Assembly: GCA_043805415.1 (NCBI GenBank) | Contig: JAZDHZ010000039.1 | Coordinates: forward strand, 14,554 to 78,553 | Reading direction: 5' to 3' | Length of the DNA: 64,000 nt | Source: Candidatus Omnitrophota bacterium | Lineage (GTDB): Bacteria > Omnitrophota > Gorgyraeia > B26-G9 | In this document: piece by piece, positions 1,743 to 42,208 of the stretch | Numbering within the stretch: position 1 is the stretch's first letter | How the letters are laid out: every line of letters starts with the position of its first letter | Position numbers and translations under genes: made by a program | The notes under the pieces: generated by a model | Database searches by the model: none | Seen by the model: the letters and a program-made list of their open reading frames with translations, nothing else | What the model was told of the DNA's origin: nothing

Positions 1743-1774
1743 AAGCAGTGTATAGCTATTGACTAGGCAAAACA

Positions 1775-3223: not shown

Positions 3224-3309
3224 TAGAATAAATGACGAATTACTAATTTCTAAAAACTTGCGTCTTGTGTCTTGGTGACATGTGACCTTATTAATAATGG
3301 AGGGATTAA

Positions 3310-24824: not shown

Positions 24825-26233
24825 TGAGTGGAGTAATAATAAGTACTTTTAAAAGAAGAAAATTTTTTATAATCGTATTATTTTTTGGCTTAGTTGTTTA
24901 TTCAACAGCTAAGGAACTATATGACGGTTATTATGAAGCAAAGACTGTTATCATGATCGATTATAAAAAAAGTCCTACTTCGGCTGAAAGCAGTTATCAA
25001 ATGGCTGAACAAGTAGTTGGAGCCGTAATGGTAAATATGCAGCTGCTTAAAAGTCCTGAGGTTTTAAGGAGTGTAGTGGAAGATCTGCGCTTATATGAAG
25101 AGGTAAAAGACTTTGTTAAGTTTGCCGGATTCAAATTTGACCGGCCCAAAAGCAGAGAAAATAAAATAAGAATAATGCAGGAAATATTGGATAAGAAATT
25201 GATAAAAGTAACATCCGCGCCGTTCACAAATATTATTAATATCACGGTTAGACATAAAAAAGCGGAAGTAGCGGCAGATGCAGCGAATACTTTAGTTAAT
25301 AATTATAAAAAATGGGTTGTGGAGCTTAGTCATCGCGAAGTTGATACATTGATTGAGTATTTAAACCGCGAAGTTACGCTTGCTTTTTCAAAGCTGAAAG
25401 AGTCAGAGGAAGAATTAAGGAAATTCGAGGAAAAAAATAAAATAGTTTATTTGCCGCGGGAAATGGATGATTATATTAAAAAAAAGGAGGGTTTGGAAGA
25501 GAAATTACAACAGTCCCAGATAGAAGAGGACGCGGTCATTGATCAAATAAAGCTGTTAAAAAATAAACTTAATACCCTGACCGATAGCAAAAGTGATAAG
25601 GTTGCCAAAACGACATATTCTGTTACAGCGGTTAATAATCCTATTATTCAAGCTTATGAAGAACAATTAATGTCTCTTAAGATAGAGATGAGCCGTTTAA
25701 AAGAACTTTATGCTGATGAAAGCATTCAAGTAAGATATATGCAGGCGAGAATTATTGATCTTGAGGTAAAGATTGATAAAACTATCGTTCAGCTGTTTAA
25801 ATCGGAATTTTCTTTAGCGACTCTAAATCCGGTGTACGAAGAATTGGTCATGGAGATAATGCGGAAAGAGACGGAGGCTGTTTTTGTAAAAGCGGAAAAA
25901 GCAGTTATCATCAAATCTTTAGCGCTGCATGAAGATAAACTCAAAAGCTTTCCGCAAAAGCAGATGGAATTAGCAAGCTTGAACCGCCAGGTAAAATATC
26001 AGGAGGAAGTATATTTTTTATTGCTGGAAGAACAGAAGAAGGCACAGCTTCTCAGAACAAAAGACACCAGAGAAGACATAAAATTAATCGCCCCTGCCTT
26101 GGTACCTTTAAAAACTAATTTTAGATTTATTAAAACATTAGTAAGATGGTTTTTCGCTTTTTTATTTTCCGTGTTTTTTGCTTTTATTTTAGATCTTAAG
26201 AGGCTATGCGGTGCTTATTCTGGAAAAAATTAG
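24824..26233 (+). CDS. polysaccharide co-polymerase (Wzz/GumC-like chain-length determinant, no kinase domain)
   Basis: It has TM helices at the N- and C-termini and a long periplasmic coiled-coil region between them. Confidence 0.6.
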   Translation: MSGVIISTFKRRKFFIIVLFFGLVVYSTAKELYDGYYEAKTVIMIDYKKSPTSAESSYQMAEQVVGAVMVNMQLLKSPEVLRSVVEDLRLYEEVKDFVKFAGFKFDRPKSRENKIRIMQEILDKKLIKVTSAPFTNIINITVRHKKAEVAADAANTLVNNYKKWVVELSHREVDTLIEYLNREVTLAFSKLKESEEELRKFEEKNKIVYLPREMDDYIKKKEGLEEKLQQSQIEEDAVIDQIKLLKNKLNTLTDSKSDKVAKTTYSVTAVNNPIIQAYEEQLMSLKIEMSRLKELYADESIQVRYMQARIIDLEVKIDKTIVQLFKSEFSLATLNPVYEELVMEIMRKETEAVFVKAEKAVIIKSLALHEDKLKSFPQKQMELASLNRQVKYQEEVYFLLLEEQKKAQLLRTKDTREDIKLIAPALVPLKTNFRFIKTLVRWFFAFLFSVFFAFILDLKRLCGAYSGKN

Positions 26234-27698
26234 ACCTGGCAGCGGCTTCCTGCAGGCATTATTGGCGGGATTGTTTCTTTTTATCGGCATTGGCCTTATC
26301 TATTGTGATTTATGGGGATTAGGGCTCGGGCTTATTCTTGGAGTTATCGGGCTGTTCTTTATTTATTGGGATGTAAAAAAAACAGTCCTTTTCTTGATAG
26401 TATTAGCTCCTATTTCCAGATTTCCTTATTTGACCGAGCATCTCGCAGTCATTAAATTCATACTGTTTAGTGTGGTTTTTATAGCGTGGTTGATTAAAAA
26501 AGAATTTAAAATTAAGGATCTATTGCTCAGCACTCCTCTAACAATAATTTTTGCCGTATTTTCCCTTTTAATTCTAATAAACATGTCGATTGCTTCTAAT
26601 TTTGCTTACGCGTTGCCGATAGTTATTACTCATTTTATAGGATTTTCATTTTTTTATGTATTCATAGATTTGTTTCATGATGAAGATTTTTTAAAAAAAG
26701 CATTTAACTTCATGCTGATTTTAGGTGTGCTTATTGGTTTGCTCGCGTGCCTGCAATATTTCATAGTGAAATACAGGATATTTCTTAATATAATGAGTAT
26801 TTTTCTGCCTAAAAGTTTTGACATTGGATTACAGTTACAGCCTATGTATCAATTTTCTCAACAGGGATTTCGGAGTATCGGGACTTTTTTCCATGCTAAT
26901 ATGTTAGGGATATATTTGTCTATGATTTTCCCTTTGAACCTGGTATTTTTAATCACTGCCTCAAAAAAATGGAAGAAACTGTTTTTAACAATAGGGTTGA
27001 TCTTAATTGTTTCAGGCATATTTTTCAGTAATTCAAAAGGGGCAGCTTTGAATATACTGATCAGCTTAACATTCATCATAATAGTTTTTAGGAAAAAGAT
27101 ATCTAAAGCCTGGCTATTCTCGGTTTTAGGGATTTTTCTCGTAATATTGTTTTTCTACTACAACAATTTCCAAACATATTACCGGATTAGCCAGGGGATT
27201 AGCTCCAGACAAATAATTTGGCATAATTCAGTCAGCTTATTAATCGAAAGGCCTTTCTGGGGATGCGGATTGGGAAATTTTTTTAATGAATACGTAGGCA
27301 GGTTTGGATTGATTAGCCTGAAGGATTTTAGAATAGCATTAGCAAGTATTGTGATCGATAGAAATATGTCGATTTTACAATCCTATACCGGCCATAATGT
27401 TTTTTTAAATTACGCGGTGGAAATGGGAATATTCGGGGCAGGCTTAATAGGATATTTTTATTTTCTCTATTTAAAATTATGCTTTAACTGCTTGAAGCTA
27501 AGAGGCATTATGAATGATTTTGACTTTGAGATATTAGTCGCTTGTACTGCCATGGGCATGGGTAATTTCGCGCATAGTTTTTTCGAAACAATAACAAATT
27601 TTTATGCTTTATCGCTGTCTTTTCCGTTTATAATTATGATCGCGGGCGGGATGTGGATAGTTTCTAAATATAAAACACGGACACTTACTGACAAATGA
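26211..27698 (+). CDS. O-antigen ligase/Wzy-type polysaccharide polymerase family membrane protein
   Basis: The 495-aa protein has more than 10 TM helices and a large loop late in the protein, as in Wzy_C/O-antigen ligase proteins. Confidence 0.55.
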   Translation: MLILEKIRPGSGFLQALLAGLFLFIGIGLIYCDLWGLGLGLILGVIGLFFIYWDVKKTVLFLIVLAPISRFPYLTEHLAVIKFILFSVVFIAWLIKKEFKIKDLLLSTPLTIIFAVFSLLILINMSIASNFAYALPIVITHFIGFSFFYVFIDLFHDEDFLKKAFNFMLILGVLIGLLACLQYFIVKYRIFLNIMSIFLPKSFDIGLQLQPMYQFSQQGFRSIGTFFHANMLGIYLSMIFPLNLVFLITASKKWKKLFLTIGLILIVSGIFFSNSKGAALNILISLTFIIIVFRKKISKAWLFSVLGIFLVILFFYYNNFQTYYRISQGISSRQIIWHNSVSLLIERPFWGCGLGNFFNEYVGRFGLISLKDFRIALASIVIDRNMSILQSYTGHNVFLNYAVEMGIFGAGLIGYFYFLYLKLCFNCLKLRGIMNDFDFEILVACTAMGMGNFAHSFFETITNFYALSLSFPFIIMIAGGMWIVSKYKTRTLTDK

Positions 27699-28948
27699 AA
27701 ATTTCCCATAATATTAAATCTATTTTTCAAAACAGTTTTTGGATTTTTCTTTCAAAGATTATAATCCCTGCTTGTTTTTTTATTTTAACCGTGGTGATCG
27801 CCCGAAGGCTTGGCGCTTATGCTTTGGGGAATTGTGCTTTTGTTTTAACTTTATTTTATGTCTTCGAGCTCATTTGCTGTTTAGGGATGGATAATCTGGT
27901 TATAAGAGAAGTAGCTAATGATAATCAAATTGCTGAAAAGTTCCTGTCTTCCGGAGTGATCATAGGATTTTTTTCCGCTTTTGTTTGTTATTTTTTAATG
28001 GTGGGAATTACTTTTATCGGACAGTATCCCTTATTGACAAAAAAGTTAATTTTTATCATTGGCGTCGGCTTGTTTCCGGGGTTTATTAATTATTTAGCCG
28101 AGTCGATATTTATCGGGCTGGAAAAATCCAAATACCTTTTTTTTGGTGTGCTTATAAAAGCAATCGGGATATTGCTCTTTAGTTTATTCTTTGTACTTAT
28201 TGGGTGGAAACTCTATGGGGTTATGTTAGCGATAGTTATCGGCTACATCCTATCAGCTGTTTTTTTGATTGGTTGTTTCCTGCGTGAAAAAATAAAAATT
28301 GATAAAATCATAGATAAAGAATTTATAAAAAAGTTTAAGGATGTTTTTTCCACATTTTTTTTGATAAATATTTTAGTCAGTATTTTTTATGCTGTTGATA
28401 TTATTATTATTTCTAAAATCGTTAGCATTGAAGATGTGGGTATTTATAGCATCGCTAAAAGGGCGGTTCGCATGGGGTTTGTGTTTGTCTTTAGTATTGT
28501 TACCGCTTTATTTCCAATTATCTCTAAAACAATTTTTTCTAAAAGAAATGATTTCCGGATAATTTACGGAAAATCATTAAGGTTGATTTTTCTTCTGAGT
28601 TTTGGTTTAACGATGATTCTAATATTGATCTCAGCGCCTTTTATTTTGTTTGTGTACGGAGACGCTTACTCTAAGGCTATACAGCTATTTAGAATATTGT
28701 CGTGTAATATAATTTTTTTAAGTTTGTCATTTCTTTTTTCGCGCTTTATAATTTCTGCCGGGCAGCAATCAAAGGATCTGCTGGCATTAGGATTGAGTTT
28801 GGGATGTCTGTTTATCTTAGCGCCGGTTTTTACTTATAAATGGGGGATTACAGGCATGGCTTACGCGAGTTTAATCGCGCAGATTATTTTATGCGGCATA
28901 CATTATTATATATTAAAACAGTATGTAATCGTAAATTTAAAGGAGTGA
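27695..28948 (+). CDS. Wzx-type flippase (MOP/polysaccharide biosynthesis protein family)
   Basis: The 417-aa protein has about 12 TM helices and the typical N-terminal 'FWIFLSKII...' of polysaccharide biosynthesis (PST) proteins. Confidence 0.65.
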   Translation: MKISHNIKSIFQNSFWIFLSKIIIPACFFILTVVIARRLGAYALGNCAFVLTLFYVFELICCLGMDNLVIREVANDNQIAEKFLSSGVIIGFFSAFVCYFLMVGITFIGQYPLLTKKLIFIIGVGLFPGFINYLAESIFIGLEKSKYLFFGVLIKAIGILLFSLFFVLIGWKLYGVMLAIVIGYILSAVFLIGCFLREKIKIDKIIDKEFIKKFKDVFSTFFLINILVSIFYAVDIIIISKIVSIEDVGIYSIAKRAVRMGFVFVFSIVTALFPIISKTIFSKRNDFRIIYGKSLRLIFLLSFGLTMILILISAPFILFVYGDAYSKAIQLFRILSCNIIFLSLSFLFSRFIISAGQQSKDLLALGLSLGCLFILAPVFTYKWGITGMAYASLIAQIILCGIHYYILKQYVIVNLKE

Positions 28949-28949
28949 T

Positions 28950-30077
28950 ATGAAAGTAGACTTTATAAATTTAAAAAAACAAAACGCTTGTTTGAGTAAG
29001 CAATTGCTTGGAGCTGTAAAAGAGGTGATAGCATCCACGGAATTTATTTTAGGTGAGCAGGTGCGGCTTTTTGAAAAGGAATTCGCCGAATATTGCGGCG
29101 CGAATTATGGGATAGGAGTTAGTTCCGGTACTGACGCTTTATTTTTAACCCTGCTTAGCCTGGGAATTGGAAAAGGAGACGAGGTCATCTGCCCTGTTTT
29201 TACTTATATCGCGACAGCGCTTAGTATTTCTTATACAGGCGCTAAACCGGTGTTTGTTGATATTGGAAAACAGTCTTTTAATATTGATGCTGAGCAGATA
29301 GAGAAAAAAATAACAAAAAAAACAAAGGCAATTATAGTAGTGCATCTTTACGGCCAAGCGGCAAACATGGCACCGATACTTAAGCTGGCGAAAAAATATA
29401 AACTAAAGGTTATTGAAGACTGTGCTCAGGCTCATGGAGCGGCATGGCGCAGCAGCAATGGTAAGTGGCAGAGGGTCGGGGCAATTGGCGATGCCGGCTG
29501 TTTCAGTTTTTATCCGACTAAAAATTTAGGCGCTTGCGGGGATGCCGGCATAGTGCTGACTAATAGTAATATTGTTAGAAAAAGGCTGCTTGTGCTGCGG
29601 GATCAGGGAAGAAAGGGTAAGAGTAGAAATTTGCATTATATTAAGGGGTATAACTGCCGATTAGATTCAATCCAGGCCGCGATGCTGAGGGTTAAATTGA
29701 AAAATTTGGATAAATATAATAAATTAAGGGTACAAAAAGCTGACTATTATAGCAGGCTTCTAAAAAATCATCCAGGCATTATAGTGCCTTTTCAGCAGGA
29801 TTACAGTAAAGATGTATATTATAATTATAGTGTATTGGTAAACAGCAGAAACCGGATTAAAAACGAACTTTTGAAAAAAGGCGTTCATACCAGTATTAAT
29901 TTTTCTCCGGCGCTGCATTTACAAAGAGCTTATAAGGAATTAGCGCATAAAAAAAACGATTTCCCCCAAGCGGAAAAGGCAGCCCGAGAAATTTTATGTC
30001 TGCCGCTGTATCCGGAATTGCCTGACGCATCCGTGAAGTATGTCGCGGAAAATTTAAAAATTGCCGCGCGGAACTAG
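28950..30077 (+). CDS. DegT/DnrJ/EryC1/StrS-family PLP-dependent sugar aminotransferase (WbpE/PglE-like)
   Basis: It has 'LGEQVRLFEKEFAEYCG', 'GDEVICPVFTYIAT', 'FSFYPTKNLGACGDAGIV' and 'RDQGR'. Confidence 0.85.
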   Translation: MKVDFINLKKQNACLSKQLLGAVKEVIASTEFILGEQVRLFEKEFAEYCGANYGIGVSSGTDALFLTLLSLGIGKGDEVICPVFTYIATALSISYTGAKPVFVDIGKQSFNIDAEQIEKKITKKTKAIIVVHLYGQAANMAPILKLAKKYKLKVIEDCAQAHGAAWRSSNGKWQRVGAIGDAGCFSFYPTKNLGACGDAGIVLTNSNIVRKRLLVLRDQGRKGKSRNLHYIKGYNCRLDSIQAAMLRVKLKNLDKYNKLRVQKADYYSRLLKNHPGIIVPFQQDYSKDVYYNYSVLVNSRNRIKNELLKKGVHTSINFSPALHLQRAYKELAHKKNDFPQAEKAAREILCLPLYPELPDASVKYVAENLKIAARN

Positions 30078-30165: not shown

Positions 30166-30253
30166 GGAGGAATGGCTGAGCGGTCGAAAGCGGCGGTCTT
30201 GAAAACCGTTGTACTGCAAGGTACCGTGGGTTCGAATCCTACTTCCTCCGCCA
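30166..30253 (+). tRNA. tRNA-Ser (anticodon UGA), class II tRNA with a long variable arm, CCA encoded
   Basis: The sequence GGAGGAATGGCTGAGCGGTCGAAAGCGGCGGTCTTGAAAACCGTT...GGGTTCGAATCCTACTTCCTCCGCCA is almost identical in architecture to E. coli tRNA-Ser(UGA). The anticodon loop is CT-TGA-AA. Confidence 0.9.
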
Positions 30254-30262
30254 GAAATAATG

Positions 30263-30292
30263 CCCCTGAGTATTTTACTCAGGGGTTTTTTT
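30263..30292 (+). terminator. rho-independent terminator after tRNA-Ser
   Basis: There is a perfect 9-bp stem CCCCTGAGT/ACTCAGGGG with a 5-nt loop, followed by T7. Confidence 0.7.
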
Positions 30293-30486
30293 ATTGTACG
30301 AGGAAGTAGGATGAGAACCCAAAAAGGGGTATTGAAGGGGAAAGACTGTTTCCCCTTCTCGGCGAGATGCGCTTGCCTGCGGAAGGAAGGGGTATCTAAG
30401 GGGAAACTATAAGAGTTTCCCTTTAGGGAGTGAGTGGACCGCAGCGAAGCGAAGGGAAACGACACGACGGGTTCGGCGAAGCGAAA

Positions 30487-30505
30487 TTCCTACTTCCTCC
30501 GCCAT
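30487..30505 (+). repeat. direct repeat of the tRNA-Ser 3' end (18/19 nt identical to 30235..30253), an att-site-like scar
   Basis: 'attcctacttcctccgcca' is compared with the tRNA 3' end 'aatcctacttcctccgcca'. An inverted 13-nt copy ('gaggaagtaggat') lies at 30300..30312. Confidence 0.7.
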
Positions 30506-30511
30506 TTTTCG

Positions 30512-30568
30512 TAAAACGAAAAATGGCGAGATCTCGCCCGCCGCAAATCGGCGAGGCGGATCCGCCAG
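30512..30568 (+). repeat. 57-bp direct repeat copy 1, containing nested perfect palindromes
   Basis: It is identical to 30831..30887. It contains GGCGAGATCTCGCC (14-bp palindrome), CGCCG-caaat-CGGCG and GGCGGATCCGCC (12-bp palindrome). Confidence 0.85.
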
Positions 30569-30830
30569 AAAATAGAAAATCCCTGTCTGAAAAGATGGGG
30601 ATTTTTTTTAAGGATACTGAGGGAATTGTAGGATTCAAGTAAAAAAATGTTTTAGGAGGGAAGAACGGAACGTTGCCTCTTTATTATAACAAAATAAGCA
30701 ATGCTTGAAATGTAATATTCTTGCGAATCATTTCCAATGCGGGTTTTGAATTGGTACTTTGTTTTTGCGACTTGTTTAAGTGCAAGTATATTGCTCAATT
30801 ATAAAGGGGACGGTTGTCCCTATATACTCT

Positions 30831-30887
30831 ATAAAACGAAAAATGGCGAGATCTCGCCCGCCGCAAATCGGCGAGGCGGATCCGCCA
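30831..30887 (+). repeat. 57-bp direct repeat copy 2 (perfect copy of 30512..30568)
   Basis: This is an exact 57/57 match. It is read in a different frame from copy 1 by overlapping ORFs, so it is non-coding. Confidence 0.85.
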
Positions 30888-30898
30888 GCTTTAATAAC

Positions 30899-31173
30899 AT
30901 GAATTATTTATATATTCTTTTAAACGAAGCAGGGACTCGAACTTATACTGGAGTCGCAGAAGATGTTGAGAAGCGGCTTCAGCAGCATAATAGCGGCTTC
31001 AGCAGCATAATAGCGGCAGAGTAAAAGCATCACTTCCATACAGGCCCTATAAAGTAATCCACATAGAGCAGTTTTTAACCCTAAAAGAAGCGCGTCAAAA
31101 AGAAAAATTCTATAAGTCAACTACTGGCCGTAGAGTTATAAAAGAAAAGTTTTTTAAAGAGGGCGGGGAGTGA
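30899..31173 (+). pseudogene. GIY-YIG nuclease-superfamily small protein (UPF0213/YhbQ-like) disrupted by a 20-bp tandem duplication
   Basis: The N-terminus 'MNYLYILLNEAGTRTYTGVAEDVEKRLQQHNSG' is a canonical GIY-YIG/YhbQ motif. After the 20-bp duplication at 30974..31013 the frame hits a stop at 31022. Removing one copy restores the expected C-terminus '...HNSGRVKASLPYRPYKVIHIEQFLTLKEARQKEKFYKSTTGRRVIKEKFF'. Confidence 0.75.
30974..31013 (+). repeat. perfect 2 x 20-bp tandem duplication (cggcttcagcagcataatag) causing the frameshift in the GIY-YIG gene
   Basis: This was seen directly. Two identical adjacent 20-mers are followed by cggcagag. 20 is not a multiple of 3, so the duplication frameshifts the gene. 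Confidence 0.9.
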
Positions 31174-31423: not shown

Positions 31424-34400
31424 ATGCAAAAATCTCCAAAAAAATTTTTAAAATGTATAGCAGTATGTCTTATACAAGTTTTAGTGCTGTCAAATTGTAA
31501 CGCTCTTGCTTTGGCTAACACTGGCTGCCAAGCATATGATACCTTGGCTCCAACACTCACAGTAAATATGCCGGCATTTATGCATGCCTACAAAACATCA
31601 AGTGATCTTCTCCCCTTAGATCTGCAGGGGGTATCCCTTAAACAAGTCTTATTAGAGTATAACACAAAGGATCAACTAGATGAGCTGATCCGTAACGCTA
31701 GTCAGAAGTCCAGTAAAGATCTTTTCCGGGAGCTATCTAATGCGGTTGCGCAAATTGGTTTTGCCAATGTTAGCGCAAAAGAACGCTATCTTTTTATTAA
31801 GCTTCTAAGTAAAGGCAAACTGGATTTTCTTTCCGATCAGGTAAACCTGAATCCCTATATATATCAAAGATTGACAAAACTTTTTGAGGATAACAGCAGT
31901 ATTAGTTTTGCGAGTATCGCAAAAGAGATGTTGGCCGCAGAACTTGATTCCGGAAATACGAATTTACCTTTAGACGCACAGCGTATATCGGGTATGCCGA
32001 AGATTCTACTTGTAGGGCCTTATCGTTCAGAACTAGGTGATCGTGAAATTGGAGCATTTCTTTCGCCTCCGTTAGGTGTGCACAGGATTGCTTCTTTTGC
32101 CCGTCAGTTTGGAGTTCAGGCAGATGTTTATGATATTGATTTGCTGGGTATTGAGGGATTAATCGAAAAGGTTAAAAAAGAAAAATATGATTTTATTATG
32201 TTTAGCGTATATCATCAGACAATTGCCAATGGTTTAAATGGAATTCATCAGGTTAAGCAGGCATTCCCGGATGCAATTATTGTTGCTGGTGGACAGGGTA
32301 TTATTGATAGGGGGCCGATAAACAATGTTGATTTTATTTTTAAACACGCGCCTGTTGATATTATGGTTCGCGGATTCGGCGAGTTTTCTGTGCTGGATAT
32401 GGCAGTAAGTCTTGATAAAAATAATCAAAAACATAACGAATTTGATGATATCCCGGGATTGCTGTTTCGCGATAAACGTGCTGCAAAAGCGCAGATGAAA
32501 TATTCTACAGATGACTTTCGGGTGGTTTCTTATTCGATGGATTATAGTGAAATCCCTCAAGATTTCTATTGGCAGAATAATACAGAGACAATGGGACAAC
32601 GTGATATTTTAAAAATGGCACGACTTATTACTGAGAGCCATTGCCCGTTTAACTGCACTTTTTGTTCCTCCAGGGTATTTCTCGATATCGCTATTGATGG
32701 AATTCAGCCGGTGTTGTATCTTTCTCCGCAGGATTCAATTAATTTACTGAATAAATTTATTGCCGCTCATCCGGAAGTTGAAGCAGTTTATCTGCATGAT
32801 GATGATTTTTTTCTTAACAAAAAAAGAGTTGCTGAATTTGTCTATTTGATACAGCAGGGCAAATTAAATAAAGACTTGAAGTTTTTTGCTCAGGGGAGAA
32901 CTGATGATTTAGATAAACCAATGCTGCGCAAGCTTTATGATGTAGGCTTTCGCCTGATCAGTTACGGGCAGGAATCAGGATCACAAAAGATGCTCAATGC
33001 TTTGCGTAAAGATAGTGATGTAACTGCTTCCAGCGATATGCTGGCGCAAAGCTATGAAGTTGGCATTATTCCTCATATCAATTTGATATTATTTCCTCCA
33101 AAAACAACTCTTGCTGATATTCAGAAAACAGTGGAAATGGCACTGCCTCTAATCGAACAAGGAGCACATATTGCTATCAGCGGACGGGTTCTTGTGCTGC
33201 CGGGAGCAAGTATGGCAGAAGAGGGGTATGAGATAGAATATCGATCTTCTGAAATTGCCGCTACAGGAGAGATAATACAGGTTCCATTTCTTTTTAAGCC
33301 TGTTGATCCGAGAATGCAGGAAATAGCAGAAAAAGCTGATTCAGTCAGGGATAGCAAGGTTGAGGCATTAAGGAAGCGCTATCCGGAATTAGACCGCCTT
33401 CCGCAGCAAATTGACGGCTTAAGTTATTTTTGGGCAGTCTATTCTCTGGCTGATTTGGCAACGGATAAAATAGAATATGTGATCCATCGCCTTATACAGC
33501 AGGAGATCAATGAACAACGCCGCGCTAAAAAAACAGCGCGCGCATTTTCTCTGGGAGAAAAAGTGCGATTGCCTGACTTGACGGATATGGAAATTGTTAC
33601 GGCTCATAATGAGAATAATGCGCAGTTGCTGATTGTTTCCGATTGCCCCTTGCGATGCCGTTTCTGTATTAATTTTGAATTTACCCAAGACGGCGTATTC
33701 CGGCATAAATTTTTACAATGGGATGAAGCCGAATATCGCCAATTGCTTAAAAAACTTAAAAAAGCAGGGATTACAGCAGTAACGCTTACGGGCGGAGAAC
33801 CTTCATATCATCCTAATCTTGTAGATTTTGTGCGGGTTGCAAAAGAAGAAGGGTTAAGAATTAGGATCACGTCCAATGGGTTGGGGCTTAACAAGAAGAT
33901 CCTGACTGACCTTCAACAGGCAAAACTTGATAACCTGACATTTTCTGTTTTTTCTTTTGATGAGATGCAATATAGAAAAATCTCAGTTCCAGAGCTGGCG
34001 CTTATTCAGGATAAGGCGGGCCTGATCGAGCCTGTGCTTGCTGCGATAAAGCAAAACATTAAAGACGCGCTGAGTGTAGGGCTTGATCCTCGATTAAATG
34101 TTATTATTACGCGTGATACTTATCCCGATGGAACGCGCCATATCATTAATGAAGCGCGGGCAATGGGTGTGCGGAAATTTCAGCTAAAAGAATTATCCGT
34201 AGAAGAAGGTATCCGTTTTACACAGGACCAATATGTGGAAATAGATGAAACGATATTGGGAGAGTTGTTCCCAAAAGTTGATTTTTACAAAAACCCTCGC
34301 TTTCAGACCGATGATATGAAAGGATTTGTATCTTACAATGAAGCTGATCCTAATAGTATAGATCTTTCAGTTGTGCTTTTTAGTTTTGAAAAGGCAAAAA

Positions 34401-37400
34401 GAATGAACACAGTTCGCGATATTTTTGTTAATCCGTTCGCGCCGATTGAGCGTTTTGCCACAAGCGGCCGCGATCCGAAGACAAGCGCCTCGGCATTACT
34501 TAAAAACGGAGAATTGATACAGTTAGCGCGGCAAACAGTCCCTGCCGAAGAAAATGGAAAAAATTTAAGGATTGGATTTTTGCATGGGCGTTATCAACCG
34601 CCGCATTTTGGGCATCTGGATTTGATCCGCAAAGCTCTGGAGGAAAATGACAAAGTAATAGTTTTGGTGGGAGCGGATAAGGCCGATAGTGAAAAAAATC
34701 CTATCCCGCAAGGGGTCCGAGTCCGGGCTTTGCAGACATTTTTCCCGCAGGAGATCATGGAAGGCAGTCTAATAATTGCGTTTAATGATGATATCCAAGA
34801 AACAGAGATATTGAAAAATGTGAACTGGGGGCAGCGGTATTATAATTTTGTGAGAGAACTGATGCCCGATGGTAATATAACTGTTTATACAGGCCCTGAA
34901 GGGGATAAAGGTTGGTGGGACCGATTTTCTGATGTACAAGTCAAACGTAGCGAAAAAAGATTAAACAATATAAGTGCTACTCAAATTAGAGAGGGAGCTT
35001 TGGCAATGGCTCCGGATTTATCTTATCAATTGTTGCGTGAAGCAAGACAGGTTGAGCATGAAAAACCAGAGTTTGAATGGACAGAGTTGCCGGAAATCAT
35101 TCCAGAGTTTATGGATGACGATGCAATGCATTTTGGAGCGGGAATATGTCTTGAAACAGATTATAATAGGTTTTTTAAACAAGCAATGCCGATGTTATGG
35201 GCAGACGGGAATACGGGTTTTGCCCGGCTTGCTGGTTTTCTCTCAAGCTTTGAGACTCCGGGTAGCGGGTTTATCCTTCGCTTGCCCAAGCTAAAACGTG
35301 AGCAGTCAGTTTATGCCCCGGGCATGGGACTAGGTATTTGTCCGCAAAAAAGAATTACAGCTCTTGGCGAACAGAAAATTATTGCGCAGGAAGCAGCGCG
35401 CGAATTGTTCCCCGATCTTATTGTATCCCCGCAATGGACACAGCAGGAATATGACCACTATATTTATTACCACATTGCCTCAACAGTGCTTTCGTCATTA
35501 TTTAGCGACATTGTTGCCTTATGGCATCTAAGTGACGAAGAAGTAAAAAAAGGGTTAAGTTTACTTCCGGAAGAAGAACGATATCGCAGTGTGGGATTGC
35601 TTGATCTTTACCGTCAGGTAGATTCCAAGCTCAGCGAAGCTACCTTGGAGAAATTTTTTCATGCTTTACTTGAATTGAATATTTCCGAAGACGAGCAGCC
35701 TTTGCGCGATCTGGTAGGACAAGAATCAAAGGCATTGGAACAGATCATTGAGCGCTTTAGTATATACGCGAAAAAAGACAGAAAATGGTTTGGAGCTCTT
35801 TACAGTCAAAGACTGCTTCACCCGGAACTTAATGATTGGGGAAAGCGTCAGCAAAAAGGAGTAACCTATAATAAGTTTATCAGCGATTTTGGAGGGCGTA
35901 ATGCCAAGCAAAAAATAAACTCTTTTCTTTTGCATCGCTTTAATTCTGCAATGAACTGGCAAAAACCATTTGATCCTATGGCTAACAGATCTAAAGCATT
36001 ATTGAATTTTTTAAAGTCACAGGAGGTTATATTTTTCCGCTTTCGCGGATTAGGATTAACAGAGACAGGCCTAAGCACAAAGCAGGAGTTAGAGAGAATC
36101 ATTGAACAGCTTGAAAAAGACATGGCTAATGAACAATGGTGGGACGATAATCGTGTGGGGTTAGCCATTTCTGCGTTACGGCAATGCTGGGGGCCTATGA
36201 TAGACGCGTTGCATTTACGAGGATTTATTTCAGCAGAAGAGAGAATGATATATTTACGCTATTATCCTTATCAAGAAAACAGGCGGTTTTACGGTAAACG
36301 TTATAATGACACAACTGTTATCGAGCATGCTGAAAGTATGGTATCAAGTACACGCGGAGACATTGCGGAAGCAAGGATCATTGACAAGCATCTTGAACGC
36401 AGCCGCAAGTACAGGGCAACGATAAAGACGCATCGGGAATATCCGACTAGCCCCTTGGTGAGTACAGCGTTGATTGCGGAAACGGAAGACGGCAGCCTCT
36501 TATTTGAAAAACGCGACGGAAAATTAGCGCTGCCTGAGCGTTTTGTCCTGGCAGACTCATCATTGGAAAATAATGTGGATAAACTAGTTGATGCTTTGGG
36601 CATTACAAGAATGAATGACATGCAATTTTTTGATTTTGCAACTGACCCGCAGCGTAATGAAAGGGTGTACGTATACACAGCTGTAGCTAATATAAAGGCG
36701 AAAAAATATTCAGCGGGCAAAGCAATTGCCGTATCAAAAGCCGTGATCGACATTGAGCAGATAACTCCGGAACATCGTGAAATTATTCGCAAATATTTAT
36801 TTGGATATAATGCTGTTTCGCGAGCGCATTATTTAAATAATATGCGGGTTGATCAGGCAACAGGTTCTGTTGTTAAGCAAAGCGTAGATCCTGAACGCGA
36901 CAAAAGAACGGCTGGTGTGCATGCTGAATTTGCGGGCAATGGCTTGACCCAGCCCTTAATCGCTGCAGATGCGATTATTGAGTATGTGGACGCGGAAGGA
37001 GAAGACAGGGGAGTTCTTTTGGTGAAAAGGTCGGGAGATAATCAATGGGCTACGATCGGGGGTTTTGCCAACAGATATGAAAGTGCTGAGCATTCTATTG
37101 CCAGAAAAGTTTACGAGAAGATCGGATTCAAAAATATTCAGTTCAAAAAACTATTAAGGTTAGCAACCCATCCCGATCGAGATGAGCGCTTGTATGTTTG
37201 GGCTCCGGCTTTTGTTGTTAAAGTTCAGGGAGAACTGCCGCAGCTGAAGCAGGATGTAATCGCATATACTTTTGTCAAGTCAGAGGCAGAACTGGATAAG
37301 CTCTTAGCAAGAAAAGATGGGCAAGGGGGTGTTTGGGCTGACCATTATGAAACACTGCGTAACTATTTTAGACAAAAGTCGCGGAACAATAAAAAAGTAT

Positions 37401-38773
37401 TACCTCCTTTTGATTCCTCTGCTGAAGTATTTATAGATAGGGTTGAGGAGTATGAGCTAGGCGCGGTGGAGAAGTCGTTGGGGTTATTGATAGATGCGGC
37501 TGATAAAGATGGCATGCTTTTTGACTCTGTATATACAGTGTTGGTAAAGCCTAGTTTAGCTTCGATGTATAATGCCCGGACGCGGACAACAACGCATCCG
37601 GTTGTAATTGAGGCAATGATATCCTATCTTAAAAAAAGAGGAGTGCGCCGGATCATTTTCGGAGACGGAGGATTCCATGGCGGGAATATGGAAGAAATTT
37701 TTTCGGAATTGGGCCTCTATGATTTGGCCGCAAAATACAATGTTACGTTAGTAGATCTTAATAAATGCAAAGCGTATAACGTGAATATTCCTAGGCGGCC
37801 GGGACAGGCATATGAAACAGTTCAATTAGCTGATATGCTTAAAGATATCGATCTTCTGGTTAATATGCCTAAACTAAAAACTCATGGGCAAATGACTATA
37901 ACCGGAGCCACGAAAAACCTTAAAGGAGTTACAACCCCTTCGCATAAACGTGCGGCGCATCAGTTATTAAAAGGAGAAGTGGAAAAAGATTTTGGCCAAG
38001 AAGCAAAGCTGAGCCAGGCAATTGTTGATAATACTGTAGCTGTATCTATGGCAATACCCAAGCAATTGATTGTTGTTGACGGAATTGAAGGAATGGAGGG
38101 TTTTGGGCCTACGCATGGGGATATAGTAAAAAGCAAATGTCTTCTTGTCGGAACAAATCCCCTGGTAGTTGATACGACTATCGCAAATATTATGCGGGTC
38201 GATCCAAATGAAATCCCTTCGATACGAATTGCGCGTAAGCTTGGTTACTGGAAACCAGAACCTGTTATTAAGGGCTTGGTGGCTATAAATGAGATTGCCC
38301 GTAAATTTGTAATGCCGAAAAAACTCACGACAAAAGACTATGGTCATTTTGAAATAGTTGTTCCTGAGGATACGACAGGTATTTGCAGCTCCTGCATGGG
38401 AGTTCTGGCAGTTGAATATCAATTAAGTAAGCCGGAGTGGAAGCAAAAATGTAAAGAAAATGGAATAAAATTTGTGGTTTATATTGGAAGAATTGCGCCT
38501 CAGGAACCTTTGCCTGAAGGTTATTTACCGGTTTACGTAGGTATCTGCCCGCTTAAATATGCTAAAGCTAAGGGGTTAAAACTAGATGAGCAAAACATGA
38601 TAAAAGTTTGTGCTCCGGGAACAGCGTCTGTAATGGAGGTTATCAACTCGGTTTATGCCCGAGCCATTGAAACTCGTTTTCAGCTGCAGAATTTGCTTTT
38701 ACCCACTATCCAAAAAAAAGAAAAAAGCCGCACTATTAGCGAAGAAAATCTTGTTGTAGAATGTGCTATATAG
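31424..38773 (+). CDS. 2449-aa multidomain megaprotein. Its domains are: N-terminal signal/anchor; B12-binding-like + radical SAM domain; second SPASM/MoaA-like radical SAM domain; NMNAT-like (NadM-type) nucleotidyltransferase; two Nudix-fold (ADP-ribose pyrophosphatase-like) domains; DUF362 domain.
   Basis: It is one uninterrupted 7350-nt ORF. Hydrophobic signal-like N-terminus: aa 1-31. rSAM CxxxCxxC motif 1: 'HCPFNCTFC' (aa 407-414, nt 32642-32665), preceded by a Rossmann/B12-like domain (aa ~190-330). rSAM motif 2: 'DCPLRCRFC' (aa 741-748), with 'VTLTGGEPSYHP...RIRITSNGLGL' typical of MoaA/SPASM-type enzymes. Nucleotidyltransferase: HxGH motif 'GRYQPPHFGHLDL' (aa ~1056-1066, compare NadM 'GRFQPFHKGH') plus 'ISATQIRE' (ISxTxIR motif). 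Two Nudix-fold segments: aa ~1675-1760 and ~1850-1985, the latter with a degenerate Nudix box 'GGFANRYESAEHSIARKVYEKIGF' and 'HPDRDER'. DUF362 hallmark: 'VKPSL...THP...LKTHGQMTITGATKNLKG' (aa ~2030-2300). Confidence 0.8.
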   Translation: MQKSPKKFLKCIAVCLIQVLVLSNCNALALANTGCQAYDTLAPTLTVNMPAFMHAYKTSSDLLPLDLQGVSLKQVLLEYNTKDQLDELIRNASQKSSKDLFRELSNAVAQIGFANVSAKERYLFIKLLSKGKLDFLSDQVNLNPYIYQRLTKLFEDNSSISFASIAKEMLAAELDSGNTNLPLDAQRISGMPKILLVGPYRSELGDREIGAFLSPPLGVHRIASFARQFGVQADVYDIDLLGIEGLIEKVKKEKYDFIMFSVYHQTIANGLNGIHQVKQAFPDAIIVAGGQGIIDRGPINNVDFIFKHAPVDIMVRGFGEFSVLDMAVSLDKNNQKHNEFDDIPGLLFRDKRAAKAQMKYSTDDFRVVSYSMDYSEIPQDFYWQNNTETMGQRDILKMARLITESHCPFNCTFCSSRVFLDIAIDGIQPVLYLSPQDSINLLNKFIAAHPEVEAVYLHDDDFFLNKKRVAEFVYLIQQGKLNKDLKFFAQGRTDDLDKPMLRKLYDVGFRLISYGQESGSQKMLNALRKDSDVTASSDMLAQSYEVGIIPHINLILFPPKTTLADIQKTVEMALPLIEQGAHIAISGRVLVLPGASMAEEGYEIEYRSSEIAATGEIIQVPFLFKPVDPRMQEIAEKADSVRDSKVEALRKRYPELDRLPQQIDGLSYFWAVYSLADLATDKIEYVIHRLIQQEINEQRRAKKTARAFSLGEKVRLPDLTDMEIVTAHNENNAQLLIVSDCPLRCRFCINFEFTQDGVFRHKFLQWDEAEYRQLLKKLKKAGITAVTLTGGEPSYHPNLVDFVRVAKEEGLRIRITSNGLGLNKKILTDLQQAKLDNLTFSVFSFDEMQYRKISVPELALIQDKAGLIEPVLAAIKQNIKDALSVGLDPRLNVIITRDTYPDGTRHIINEARAMGVRKFQLKELSVEEGIRFTQDQYVEIDETILGELFPKVDFYKNPRFQTDDMKGFVSYNEADPNSIDLSVVLFSFEKAKRMNTVRDIFVNPFAPIERFATSGRDPKTSASALLKNGELIQLARQTVPAEENGKNLRIGFLHGRYQPPHFGHLDLIRKALEENDKVIVLVGADKADSEKNPIPQGVRVRALQTFFPQEIMEGSLIIAFNDDIQETEILKNVNWGQRYYNFVRELMPDGNITVYTGPEGDKGWWDRFSDVQVKRSEKRLNNISATQIREGALAMAPDLSYQLLREARQVEHEKPEFEWTELPEIIPEFMDDDAMHFGAGICLETDYNRFFKQAMPMLWADGNTGFARLAGFLSSFETPGSGFILRLPKLKREQSVYAPGMGLGICPQKRITALGEQKIIAQEAARELFPDLIVSPQWTQQEYDHYIYYHIASTVLSSLFSDIVALWHLSDEEVKKGLSLLPEEERYRSVGLLDLYRQVDSKLSEATLEKFFHALLELNISEDEQPLRDLVGQESKALEQIIERFSIYAKKDRKWFGALYSQRLLHPELNDWGKRQQKGVTYNKFISDFGGRNAKQKINSFLLHRFNSAMNWQKPFDPMANRSKALLNFLKSQEVIFFRFRGLGLTETGLSTKQELERIIEQLEKDMANEQWWDDNRVGLAISALRQCWGPMIDALHLRGFISAEERMIYLRYYPYQENRRFYGKRYNDTTVIEHAESMVSSTRGDIAEARIIDKHLERSRKYRATIKTHREYPTSPLVSTALIAETEDGSLLFEKRDGKLALPERFVLADSSLENNVDKLVDALGITRMNDMQFFDFATDPQRNERVYVYTAVANIKAKKYSAGKAIAVSKAVIDIEQITPEHREIIRKYLFGYNAVSRAHYLNNMRVDQATGSVVKQSVDPERDKRTAGVHAEFAGNGLTQPLIAADAIIEYVDAEGEDRGVLLVKRSGDNQWATIGGFANRYESAEHSIARKVYEKIGFKNIQFKKLLRLATHPDRDERLYVWAPAFVVKVQGELPQLKQDVIAYTFVKSEAELDKLLARKDGQGGVWADHYETLRNYFRQKSRNNKKVLPPFDSSAEVFIDRVEEYELGAVEKSLGLLIDAADKDGMLFDSVYTVLVKPSLASMYNARTRTTTHPVVIEAMISYLKKRGVRRIIFGDGGFHGGNMEEIFSELGLYDLAAKYNVTLVDLNKCKAYNVNIPRRPGQAYETVQLADMLKDIDLLVNMPKLKTHGQMTITGATKNLKGVTTPSHKRAAHQLLKGEVEKDFGQEAKLSQAIVDNTVAVSMAIPKQLIVVDGIEGMEGFGPTHGDIVKSKCLLVGTNPLVVDTTIANIMRVDPNEIPSIRIARKLGYWKPEPVIKGLVAINEIARKFVMPKKLTTKDYGHFEIVVPEDTTGICSSCMGVLAVEYQLSKPEWKQKCKENGIKFVVYIGRIAPQEPLPEGYLPVYVGICPLKYAKAKGLKLDEQNMIKVCAPGTASVMEVINSVYARAIETRFQLQNLLLPTIQKKEKSRTISEENLVVECAI

Positions 38774-42000: not shown

Positions 42001-42208
42001 TATCACAATTCCGACTGGAGGCAAACTCTATACATTTTCCAAATTAATCAGTCGCGAGCAATTAAAGATAAATGCTTTTTATGCTAAGAAATTGGGCAGA
42101 CTGTTGTTTTTGATTATTCTGTTTACCGCGATCGCGATGATTATCCGCTATAAACAAAATATCATAAAAATACTGCAAAACCTGAGCAAGAAAAACAAAC
42201 CGGAATAA
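39065..42208 (+). CDS. large secreted, C-terminally membrane-anchored repetitive beta-rich protein (surface/adhesin-like), function unknown
   Basis: The 1047-aa protein has a signal peptide 'MRKIWGNVLMLIIGFLSILPFAEA'. Internal repeats of ~200 aa share '...(K/E)NWxL/V...KxxxLxVELxxxxxDxYxLxL...'. The C-terminal TM is 'LLFLIILFTAIAMII' followed by a basic tail. Confidence 0.6.
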   Translation: MRKIWGNVLMLIIGFLSILPFAEAKEADMCIASKSMGIPSYVVQEAAYSGKVEDATVFVDTKLKIEVLAEQQSSVPLFTQDVAMIKTALPKGVLLLQREGNYNLLFPGKGSYTVGLQFTVLVNQKSDRNLINLEVTQAAISTLQLVFEGTDLDIQSSPAMSTLIKAKGKSTEFTAYLGTARQIEVSWFAKPTALAKANLLFNSENNTLITISSGVINTRTFLNYKVIQGKLSQFNVSLPENMNLLTVKGENLKNWTLKKDKSKQILSVELTKEISDTYQLVLDAEEIKDKIEGTYSTSDIISLDAERENGYYAFKVKDDYKLRSLQRNGVSQLNIGELPQQLKDAGDGEANISLAYRFLRDPKELVINIEKITPEISARNNVFLDVSEEVTRLLVLTDYKIEKAGVFNLNLELPGDMDVIEVNGLNIENWKVNQKGNTQELEIQLRTKAMNDYRLFVKMEKPVKDIYQDIQMPQVNVLNADKLTGFIGVACESSINLKTKHRSKLTEIALSDLIPVPTGESSPALAYKFLTQPYELQLAVEKVDPRVMADVFTFLSVGEGLVLVNSAVSFDVLFAGVDQFEIALPDDVSGVDITGQGIKAKAERVEEMDVNGQKKKVKIYTVSLHSKVKGKYTLYCAYEKVLKNLSEKTDMPSLQILGVERQTGSVAIGPRANVEIELVNIEGASQVDVKELAQDKLSGADIPILYALKYVRYPYSVGLDIKKHEDVAVLVAVVESAKITTVLGKDGQIIVSAKYQIKNRTKQYLDIALPKNVEIWSTFVDGKAVKPAKTEADKILLPLVKYEEKDRSFPVEIIYEVKRSKFFMFGSINLTAPHFDIPLTNVTWDVYMPFGYNYYNISGNMELGTRAFAQGRWQPQEMDKIGGISGFSDEKARREMPRVASSQLKKQVDYYECADSLTVCESKEEAYSPEPAQKMDQRKDQAFFSNINSQIARYNQQLAPSKNKQVATEGRQKGVLPIHITIPTGGKLYTFSKLISREQLKINAFYAKKLGRLLFLIILFTAIAMIIRYKQNIIKILQNLSKKNKPE

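Follow-up and report, generated by a model that had tools for sequence, protein, structure and literature searches.

Genes for GIY-YIG nucleases next to tRNA genes are known from the tRNA clusters of phages T4 and T6, where SegB and other Seg genes occupy intergenic positions. The Seg proteins are longer than 200 amino acids and carry a separate DNA-binding domain. In this paper we describe a layout like theirs on a bacterial chromosome. It lies in a stretch of 64,000 nucleotides from a Candidatus Omnitrophota bacterium (contig JAZDHZ010000039.1, positions 14,554 to 78,553 of the forward strand), which we call the window, and it consists of a serine tRNA gene, tRNA-Ser(UGA), a perfect 57-nt direct repeat in its 3' flank and a broken gene for a small GIY-YIG nuclease. 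We find that the 57-mer is one instance of a conserved family of palindromic modules that follow serine tRNA genes, and we lean, with moderate confidence, towards the explanation that the whole flank is a decayed and rearranged copy of a widespread two-part cassette, spread by a selfish, homing-like mechanism that would act at the level of DNA. We liken this cassette to the Seg genes, for which two reports (PMC2988022; PMC13096335) describe a selfish distribution, frequent decay and an expected spread via break repair that co-converts the flanking DNA.

The likeness to the Seg genes is incomplete. The family seen in the window encodes only about 80 amino acids, all of them catalytic domain; it is chromosomal and found in seven or more bacterial phyla, and a scan of viral contigs for the module gave no match; it always comes with a palindromic module built from the tRNA tail; and its fold is nearer to Slx1 and HIGLE than to I-TevI. 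It shares with homing endonucleases the fold family, an intergenic position beside a conserved target and a sporadic distribution with decay, but not the extended DNA-binding domain that recognises a long site. The best matches in sequence and fold are UPF0213/YhbQ and Slx1/HIGLE, and the protein of this family has GIY-YIG as its only domain and retains the catalytic residues. In contrast to the Slx1 lineage, the family in the window has no Slx4-like partner and no RING domain, and its nuclease activity is predicted. We know of no fixed genomic association of the UPF0213/Slx1/HIGLE lineage with a DNA motif or with tRNA genes. HIGLE is described as a Holliday-junction resolvase of the SLX1 lineage; like Slx1, it cleaves branched DNA and Holliday junctions (PMC9071465). 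It is the position of a nuclease of this branched-DNA lineage beside a module capable of forming a cruciform that leads to the mechanism proposed below.

Among DNA elements, integron attC sites share with the module an imperfect palindrome whose structure is conserved over its sequence, conserved extrahelical bases and tandem copies with short inserts. Unlike attC sites, the module is anchored to tRNA-Ser tails and a nuclease gene instead of cassette open reading frames (ORFs), it lacks the core sites RYYYAAC and GTTRRRY (R''/R'), and no integron integrase is present in the ORFs that we scanned. Elements that target tRNA genes, such as attachment (att) sites, islands and tycheposon-type arrays, also give rise, downstream of an intact tRNA gene, to direct repeats of its 3' end, whereas the window has no recombinase and no cargo, contains inverted tail copies as well, and its repeat ends a structured module of about 200 nt. 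Two RNA families of Rfam resemble the arrangement. The consensus of sX4 (RF02223) is a tRNA-Ser with a trailer whose GGCGA pairs with CCGCCA, and gyrA RNA (RF01740) consists of two hairpins and CCAGAAAA and aligns to window positions 30495-30577. Both remain below their gathering scores (37 against 70 bits for sX4; 28 against 45 bits, E=1e-4, for gyrA RNA), with sub-threshold match sites at window 30495-30577, at 6153-6313 in locus L030 and at 5685-5848 in locus L044. We rejected identity with either family, judging the matches to be driven by the tRNA, which makes up most of the sX4 score, or to be resemblances of architecture; neither family has the two conserved cores or the GIY-YIG linkage of our module. 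Going by the sX4 consensus, tail-sequestering tRNA-Ser trailers may also exist in Proteobacteria. We file the locus as a homing-type nuclease cassette, yet it fails defining features of each system compared: it has no DNA-binding domain, no integrase and no attC cores, and it is not dispersed like repetitive extragenic palindromic (REP) sequences or miniature inverted-repeat transposable elements (MITEs).

Across the family the module keeps one order of parts, from the tRNA-Ser tail through a covarying hairpin 1, the core GGCGAGATCTCGCC and a covarying hairpin 2 to the core GGCGGATCCGCC(A). The sequence of hairpin 1 is lineage-specific, and hairpin 2 varies in length. A scan of one genome per species for the exact cores (pattern GGCGAGATCTCGCC-N5-30-GGCGGATCCGCC) matched 54 loci, each examined as a stretch of 8 kb; fetched loci are cited here by L numbers. 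They come from seven or more phyla, including Omnitrophota, Nitrospirota, Thermodesulfobacteriota/Desulfobacterota, Planctomycetota, Verrucomicrobiota, Elusimicrobiota and Firestonebacteria. When the 54 loci are aligned, the upstream tRNA 3' ends read ...CTCCGCCA in register, and ARAGORN calls the tRNA upstream of the module as tRNA-Ser in essentially every locus, with the anticodons CGA, GGA, GCU and UGA. The covariance model R1, built from 27 module copies (alignment A1), gave 71 matches at E<1e-8 in the window and the 54 loci, and 54 of these abut a tRNA-Ser 3' end (CGA 19, GGA 22, GCU 8, UGA 5). Counted from the tRNAs in the same loci, the module stands 3' of 54 of the 67 tRNA-Ser genes that have enough downstream sequence and 3' of none of the 18 non-Ser tRNAs. 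R1 detects no copies in the window beyond the two already known, which lie at the tRNA-Ser flank. Some tRNA-Ser genes in carrier genomes lack the module, as do many lineages. In four loci (L004, L014, L025 and L029) it lies within the conserved arrangement of tRNA-Ser, signal recognition particle RNA (ffs) and dnaX, and in L014 just the first 17 nt of the nuclease gene are left between module and ffs. We have high confidence in the existence of this family and in its link to tRNA-Ser ends and to the nuclease. Besides tRNA, no Rfam 15 family matches the module, or the second element E described below, at gathering score. The literature that we searched holds no account of the module, of its core sequences or of a bacterial tRNA-Ser/GIY-YIG association, and the family is apparently undescribed.

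At least 27 modules are accompanied by a conserved ORF of about 80 amino acids that starts 1-25 nt downstream; the start pattern ATG-TAY-YAY-GTN-TAT-ATT... follows the module in about half of the cases, and the consensus of the product is MYYVYILLNEAKTRTYTGVADDV.KRL..HNAGRVK.S.PYRPY..IHTE.F.TL.EARQKEKFYKSTTGRR. With tblastn the nuclease gene was detected in 40 fetched loci, adjoining tRNA-Ser ends. The linkage also holds when the protein is the starting point. The window protein, repaired as described below, matched 298 clusters of a large protein collection at E<1e-10 and 66-90% identity, named "GIY-YIG nuclease family protein" and coming from Omnitrophica, Planctomycetes and other metagenome-assembled genomes (MAGs). 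Five homologues picked by protein alone (P0001, P0002, P0006, P0094 and P0105) all have the module directly upstream (44-79 bits), and a tRNA-Ser is present wherever their contig extends far enough; P0001 and P0002 are intact and 89-90% identical to the window protein. The protein has 80-84 amino acids, is made up of the catalytic domain only, with GIY-YIG (PF01541) as its sole Pfam domain, and is matched by no NCBIfam model. The nearest sequences in the PDB are the UPF0213 proteins EF2693 and BH0048, and identity to solved members is 22-31%. In an alignment of 33 sequences, column identity averages 68%, with 23 invariant columns, among them Y5, Y16, G18, N31, R59, E62 and R71, with R26 and H30 at least 90% conserved. 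The AlphaFold2 (AF2) model, with a mean predicted local distance difference test score (pLDDT) of 91, retrieves the UPF0213 structure 1ZG2 first in Foldseek, then At-HIGLE 7WME and Slx1 (template modelling (TM) scores 0.63-0.69, root-mean-square deviation (rmsd) 1.8-2.7 Å), while I-TevI (TM 0.55) and UvrC (0.54) rank below Slx1/HIGLE. Between phyla, the proteins are on average 70% and up to 88% identical, and several have their best match in another phylum.

The nuclease gene decays often. Eight defective copies were found, in the window and in L002, L009, L014, L015, L031, L033 and L036. The window gene is frameshifted by a 20-bp tandem duplication, AGCGGCTTCAGCAGCATAAT x2, at 30972-30991 and 30992-31011; tblastn reports it as two high-scoring segment pairs in different frames, and removal of one copy restores a protein of 84 amino acids. 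Either real slippage or an error of assembly or sequencing could have produced the duplication. It is absent from the intact homologues in L055 and L056, which carry the closest GIY-YIG genes and whose downstream genes are unrelated to the giant gene that follows in the window. L056 combines a tRNA-Ser, hairpins 1 and 2 identical to those of the window, 12 nt and an intact gene for a 90% identical protein, next to a different tRNA-Ser and different downstream genes; judged from this sequence, L056 probably represents the undamaged state of the window's cassette.

More distant GIY-YIG genes also occur beside tRNA-Ser, at 215-394 in L066 and 6240-6467 in L001 (36% and 41% identical to the window's), the latter preceded by a different palindrome that contains GGATCCGCC. 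The tRNA-Ser/GIY-YIG association may extend beyond the subfamily studied here. In L071/L072 a weak module-like palindrome (1751-1820; 23 bits on both strands) directly follows the stop codon of a GIY-YIG gene, and an HNH endonuclease gene is next (1930-2625), which places two selfish-type nuclease genes side by side.

The features of the window flank, and two copies from other loci that are referred to below, are as follows.

30166-30253, + strand: tRNA-Ser(UGA) gene with encoded CCA (ARAGORN; Rfam RF00005, 59.7 bits), the sole tRNA that ARAGORN and Rfam find in the window
30227-30272 / 30276-30321: imperfect palindrome with 46-nt arms, 78% complementary, centred on the T1 loop
30262-30291, + strand: terminator-like hairpin T1 and T-run directly 3' of the tRNA (terminator scan; T1 itself is 30262-30286)
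30295-30505, + strand: module E1, a structured non-coding element of about 210 nt with full-length homology to an element in L066
30300-30312: first inverted tail copy, GAGGAAGTAGGAT, inside the palindrome with 46-nt arms
30324-30343 and 30387-30406: purine-rich repeats, 90% identical, the 5' arms of two hairpins
30486-30504, + strand: direct copy of the tRNA-Ser tail, 18/19 identical to 30235-30253 and exact over 17 nt (30488-30504 = 30237-30253)
30505-30568, + strand: palindromic module copy 1 (R1 82.3 bits, E=2.6e-22, over 30493-30568), with hairpin 1 at 30505-30524, GGCGAGATCTCGCC at 30525-30538, hairpin 2 at 30539-30554 and GGCGGATCCGCC at 30555-30566, then AG
30512-30568 and 30832-30888: perfect 57-nt direct repeat, spacing 320
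30525-30538, 30539-30553 and 30555-30566: the three palindromes of the 57-mer, GGCGAGATCTCGCC, CGCCG-caaat-CGGCG and GGCGGATCCGCC
30576-30612, + strand: inverted repeat T2 (AAAATCCCTG...GGGGATTTTTTTT), terminator-like by sequence only and not called by the terminator scan
30613-30680, + strand: 5' fragment of a second E copy, its first ~60 nt (sequence comparison, nhmmer)
30628-30639: weaker inverted T-arm copy, GTAGGATTCAAG, within this fragment
30681-30831, + strand: AT-rich filler with a sigma-70-like site at 30765-30792 and a short hairpin at 30807-30820, without a homologue in any fetched locus
30832-30888, + strand: palindromic module copy 2 (R1 38.4 bits over 30820-30888)
30899-31173, + strand: GIY-YIG pseudogene of the UPF0213/Slx1-like lineage (Pfam PF01541, E=2.6e-14), ATG at 30899
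L039, 1768-1855, - strand: module copy upstream of a tRNA-Ser, on the opposite strand
L030, 60-205: E-type module after tRNA-Lys(UUU), with both ends matching the T-arm and tail of tRNA-Lys and with a Ser-type core

Read from left to right, the flank begins with tRNA-Ser(UGA), T1 and an E1 that ends in the tail copy, continues with hairpin 1 and the rest of module copy 1, T2, the 5' E fragment, 150 nt with the promoter-like site and the right half of hairpin 1 with copy 2, and closes with 10 nt and the pseudogene. No module directly follows the genuine tRNA-Ser, whose last 7 nt, TCCGCCA, are the element that we call X0. For copy 1 the tail copy acts as X0, whereas copy 2 begins in the loop of hairpin 1 and has neither X0 nor the left arm of this hairpin. 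Neither repeat is expected by chance: the 17-mer of the tail occurs three times in the window with up to 3 mismatches (0.11 expected from shuffles) and a 42-nt core of the 57-mer twice (0.00 expected). Tandem layouts of a resident module followed by a half-module and gene recur in L039, L015, L021, L045 and L055, so the layout of the window is typical of the family and not a one-off. An assembly artefact is unlikely for the 57-nt repeat, since a repeat of this size with a spacing of 320 nt is shorter than typical reads and the architecture recurs in independent assemblies. All sequence features listed in the earlier note on this stretch are present, mostly with coordinates one base off. The tail copy has the 18/19 match given there and lies at 30486-30504 rather than 30487-30505, and the 57-bp repeat is perfect as described, with its second copy at 30832-30888 and a spacing of 320 instead of 30831-30887 and 319 bp. 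The two copies do fall in different frames of overlapping ORFs (30430-30642 and 30737-31024). We also agree that the flank is a rearrangement-prone non-coding mosaic, that the 57-mer belongs to a repeat family which probably serves protein recognition or recombination, and that the adjacent GIY-YIG gene is relevant to it.

The structure of the module is best described by its parts, in the order X0 (TCCGCCA), hairpin 1, X'1 (TGGCGAGA), X1 (TCTCGCC), hairpin 2, X'2 (GGCGGA) and X2 (TCCGCCA). X'1 is complementary to the tail, X2 is a direct copy of it, and X1, hairpin 2 and X'2 form one long hairpin. X'1 has two possible partners, the tRNA tail and X2, and when paired with X2 it closes a hairpin of about 20-25 bp with two conserved single-base bulges. 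The stems covary: in an alignment of the 71 matches, which was fitted to the model and leans towards structure, 97.2% of cells are in standard pairs, 18 of 24 pairs show compensatory changes, and the covariation score is 0.353, compared with 0.090 after shuffling and at most 0.076 in slid registers. Covariation can also be seen by eye in the raw hairpin sequences. Since the exact-pattern scan fixes the two cores, we turned to the copies with non-exact cores that R1 detects. T8:A6' became C:G twice (L030:7861 and L015), C13:G2' became T:A (L021, L015) or G:C (L054), in L044 X0/X'1/X2 and X1/X'2 are altered as two separate sets (TCCACCA / TGGTGAGA / TCCACA), and in L070 and L039 both GATC centres are replaced by AGTC/GACT, fully compensated. 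These changes keep X1:X'2 and X'1:X2 (or X'1:X0) at the expense of the local 14- and 12-bp palindromes. What is conserved is therefore the long hairpin X'1-X1-hairpin 2-X'2-X2 with its two bulges, preceded by hairpin 1, and we ruled out the local palindromes and the GATC centres as conserved protein sites.

X'1 and X2 match whatever tail adjoins the module. L070 has a tRNA without encoded CCA, and its module reads CTCTCCG / CGGAGAAG / CTCTCC. The copy in L039 that lies across the tRNA uses the complement of the tRNA 5' end (CTCTCCA / TGGAGAAG / CTCTCCA). Structured RNAs normally tolerate G·U pairs on the transcribed strand. The pairing of the module is strand-symmetric and almost perfectly Watson-Crick: among 1587 paired cells there are 11 mismatches of the G·U type and 18 of the A·C type, and when distinct hairpins are paired from the outside in (about 700 pairs) the numbers are 3 and 11. 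No terminator is called on the + strand within the 57-mers, and no T-run follows their hairpins.

Four independent loci have breakpoints at, or right beside, the tip of hairpin 1. In the window the second 57-mer starts in the hairpin 1 loop, in L033 the insertion point of E is just behind the left arm of this hairpin, and in L039 and L015 the second module copies lack this arm. Taken with stems that show no excess of G·U, these breakpoints suggest a palindrome that acts at the DNA level and is prone to breakage and templated repair. In two copies the segment between the two cores has been lost exactly, leaving GGCGAGATCCGCC in L025 and a mini-module in L055. In L005 (7276-7359) the order of the two cores is reversed with respect to the tRNA, perhaps by an inversion between them. 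The close relative L066 has the same tRNA-Ser(UGA), and there a terminator-like hairpin, (T)AAAATAGAAAATCCCTG..., comes straight after the tail; in the window the (T)AAAATAGAAAATCCCTG sequence, which includes T2, follows X2 of module copy 1 (nhmmer, window 30570-30679 against L066 613-710, E=3e-9). Since the same sequence follows the tail in L066 and X2 in the window, the window has, relative to L066, ~56 nt placed between two TCCGCCA repeats. Hairpin 2 and its flanks nearly duplicate hairpin 1 and its flanks in several lineages (in Nitrospira, CCATTTGC/GCAAATGG and ATTTGC/GCAAAT; in Desulfobacterota, AAATTTTGC and ATTTTG); such sequences fit an origin of the module by duplication of one palindromic unit made of tail, arm, loop, arm and anti-tail. 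Hairpin 1 is identical (20/20) in the Omnitrophota locus L012 and in Thermodesulfobacteriota loci.

The 234 bp between the tRNA and the tail copy consist of T1 and a complete copy of a second recurrent module, E. The 5' end of E1 is an inverted tRNA T-arm and acceptor (30300-30321), internal hairpins follow at 30334-30358 and 30396-30426, and the 3' end (30466-30505) is a degenerate T-arm (GGGTTCG-GCGAAGCGAA-ATTCCTAC) with an exact tail. Pairing joins the ends of the element (fold z = -4.3 against shuffles), and the hairpins of E covary. E1 matches the element after tRNA-Ser(UGA) in L066 over its whole length (nhmmer E=1.7e-23; alignment A4); L066 was the one informative locus from a metagenome scan with a 37-mer of the tRNA, which otherwise brought up mostly unrelated lineages with the same tRNA. 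L012, L030 and L033 contain a related Omnitrophota subfamily (E=8e-18 to 3e-8), and a Nitrospirota subfamily is present in L049 and twice in L028 (E=4e-45); in these loci, as in L066, E stands behind a tRNA-Ser. As the L030 copy at 60-205 follows tRNA-Lys(UUU), E is not restricted to tRNA-Ser. The same copy, with a Ser-type core and Lys-matched ends, rules out E as a decayed tandem tRNA-Ser gene. A retroviral-type primer-binding site was rejected as well, with no reverse transcriptase present and most copies matching the T-loop and not the 3' end, and retrons, group II intron fragments, tmRNA and ribozymes were dropped for want of a model match and of an associated gene. Inverted and then direct tail copies lie downstream of 8 of the ~80 tRNA-Ser genes examined. 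Two hairpins of E contain G·T wobbles on the + strand, and E may be an RNA or another product of the same break-and-repair process.

The cassette that we propose would have two parts, a palindromic DNA module that takes the final 7 nt of the tRNA as its basis and, 1-25 nt after it, the gene for a stand-alone GIY-YIG nuclease of about 80 amino acids. The module would act as DNA, in the form of a cruciform or hairpin, which the nuclease would recognise or cut. Repair of the break could copy the module to tRNA-Ser ends, alone or together with the gene, homogenise the copies within a genome and yield tail duplications and tandem half-modules as by-products. As signs of a selfish life style we count the eight defective nuclease genes, the protein identity and best matches across phyla, the hairpin 1 shared by L012 and Thermodesulfobacteriota loci, and the occurrence in L056 of a module with the window's two hairpins in another gene context. 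For the window this suggests a history in which an E module ending in a tail copy gained a module, a second unit of module and nuclease, broken at the tip of hairpin 1, came to lie 263 bp further on, and the 20-bp duplication would then have inactivated the nuclease gene.

Some of the same observations could be explained at the level of RNA, with the module as a structured 3' trailer of the tRNA-Ser precursor and 5' untranslated region of the nuclease mRNA, which we regard as unlikely while giving it some weight. X'1, as an anti-acceptor, could sequester the tRNA tail, which X2 would free again as a decoy; the hairpins would guide the RNase cuts that separate tRNA and mRNA, and would also set the level at which the tRNA promoter expresses the nuclease. 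Such a role would suit a module that starts right after CCA on the tRNA strand and ends just before a start codon, the folding of the tail into hairpin 1 by RNAalifold, the switch-like choice between 1:2 and 2:3 pairing, the weak sub-threshold Rfam matches and the wobbles in the two hairpins of E. It does not predict stems without G·U enrichment, hairpins without a following T-run on the + strand or DNA breakpoints at hairpin tips, and the copies that are inverted or lie across the tRNA (L039, L005) would be outside the tRNA transcript. The module also persists after loss of the ORF and behind tRNA-Ser genes that have no ORF. We attach a low probability to a further possibility, namely that the Slx1/HIGLE-like nuclease serves the host as a housekeeping resolvase of hairpin-prone tRNA-Ser flanks and that the module is vertically inherited. 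The extreme conservation of the protein, its clustering mostly by phylum, the presence of the module at most tRNA-Ser genes of a genome and its place within the tRNA-Ser-ffs-dnaX synteny would all be expected of a host function. Of the nuclease genes seen, however, roughly one in five is a pseudogene or remnant, the genome of the window tolerates a broken gene, the module is absent from many lineages and from some tRNA-Ser genes of carrier genomes, and best matches across phyla reach 82-88%.

Two explanations for repeats of this kind had been raised by the earlier note, and both fare worse still. A generic REP- or MITE-like repeat, mobilised in trans by a REP-associated tyrosine transposase (RAYT) or an enzyme of the IS200/IS605 type with the GIY-YIG gene as a passenger, would be short, palindromic and non-coding, with tandem and truncated copies, as the module is; a 7-nt direct repeat of the target flanks it, and a related contig holds a Y1_Tnp fragment. 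We nevertheless consider it improbable. The module is not dispersed: the 57-mer occurs only at this flank in the window and elsewhere is almost confined to tRNA-Ser ends, sparing all 18 other tRNAs. Its linkage to the GIY-YIG gene is tight in both directions, and its interior adapts to the flank, which a fixed transposon end would not do. The remaining explanation, that the repeats are att scars of a tyrosine- or serine-integrase element whose integrase and cargo have since been deleted, seems to us very improbable indeed. tRNA 3' ends are classical integration sites, and a direct repeat of 17-19 nt of the tail 234 bp downstream looks like the product of such an event. But the tail copy is the 3' end of the recurrent ~200-nt module E and not the far end of an island, and its position in a partial tRNA-like sequence, E's degenerate T-arm and tail, counts against att sites, a bearing that the earlier note had itself foreseen. 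The flanked segment is a conserved structured module that recurs at other tRNAs with ends matched to each of them, an inverted copy included, which integration does not produce. The segment of 234 bp is non-coding and has no cargo genes, the larger neighbouring ORFs that we scanned (~23.4 to 46 kb) gave no match to an integrase or transposase domain, in agreement with the earlier note, and in all 40 gene-carrying loci the 57-mer family is linked to the nuclease and not to integrases. L066 carries the same E module after the same tRNA as the window, and the next homologue of the window's DegT protein is 65% identical.

The reading as a selfish, homing-like cassette has to be weighed against several points of its own. 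We infer every mechanistic step of the model, and a protein of 80 amino acids without a separate DNA-binding domain is unlike the characterised homing endonucleases. The next DegT homologue, at 65% identity, is too distant to stand for a close relative at the same locus. The proteins cluster mostly by phylum, which fits old vertical inheritance under strong purifying selection. Near-perfect Watson-Crick pairing could reflect hairpins that are young or often re-templated instead of a function at the DNA level, the covariation counts carry the leaning of the fitted alignment mentioned above, and the module is co-transcribed with the tRNA in any simple model, so that a role as RNA is possible. 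The loci were picked by an exact pattern, and the apparent invariance of the two cores is in part an artefact of this selection. Stretches of 8 kb place a link in trans, of one nuclease gene to several modules of a genome, outside our view, and the taxon labels are those of MAGs, in which binning errors are possible.

Downstream of the locus (31424-38773, + strand) a giant ORF of 2449 amino acids joins B12-binding, two radical-SAM, cytidylyltransferase-like, NUDIX and DUF362 domains in one polypeptide, which is an unusual fusion. The suggestion that this gene and its neighbours were acquired is not borne out by composition: the GC content of 31-44 kb (0.38-0.46) resembles that of the window elsewhere. 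An ORF of 1047 amino acids without a Pfam match follows (39065-42208, + strand), and its neighbourhood with an ABC-F gene, apparently conserved in a related Omnitrophota contig, likewise gives no sign of acquisition. There, in L073, a gene of 1047 residues with no recorded Pfam match (259-3402), paired with the window's by length only, lies upstream of an 81% identical ABC-F gene, and a Y1_Tnp fragment and a PhaC gene are inserted before the latter. The ABC-F relatives L073 and L074 end before the tRNA region or are not syntenic. Upstream of DegT, the region 26000-29000 has a low GC content (0.32-0.34 against ~0.40 elsewhere) and encodes Wzy_C (O-antigen ligase-like) and a polysaccharide flippase. 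Such a profile is typical of variable surface-polysaccharide clusters, and should recent exchange have touched the window at all, this region is a likelier candidate than the giant gene.

A broader possibility, which we put forward tentatively and regard as rather doubtful, is that these loci represent an unrecognised class of chromosomal selfish element that crosses phyla and combines a minimal Slx1-like nuclease with a target-templated module at either end of the acceptor stem. The nuclease would cut the cruciform or hairpin, and break repair would spread and homogenise the module over all tRNA-Ser genes of a genome, with the E modules, as mimics of the tRNA tail with an inverted T-arm, being non-autonomous riders or products of the same process. 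Given a small protein and a DNA substrate of 60 nt, the idea is directly testable. For genome annotation, the module and E can be mistaken for att scars, small RNAs or terminators, and the small gene is widely labelled just "GIY-YIG nuclease family protein". If the idea is true, a nuclease of 80 amino acids would target genes without a DNA-binding domain, by means of a DNA structure built from the target sequence itself, which would set it apart from protein-guided homing endonucleases and from RNA-guided nucleases. It would also account for the conserved sequence 3' of tRNA-Ser in Nitrospira, Omnitrophota, Desulfobacterota, Planctomycetota and Verrucomicrobiota, including that in the tRNA-Ser-ffs-dnaX arrangement.

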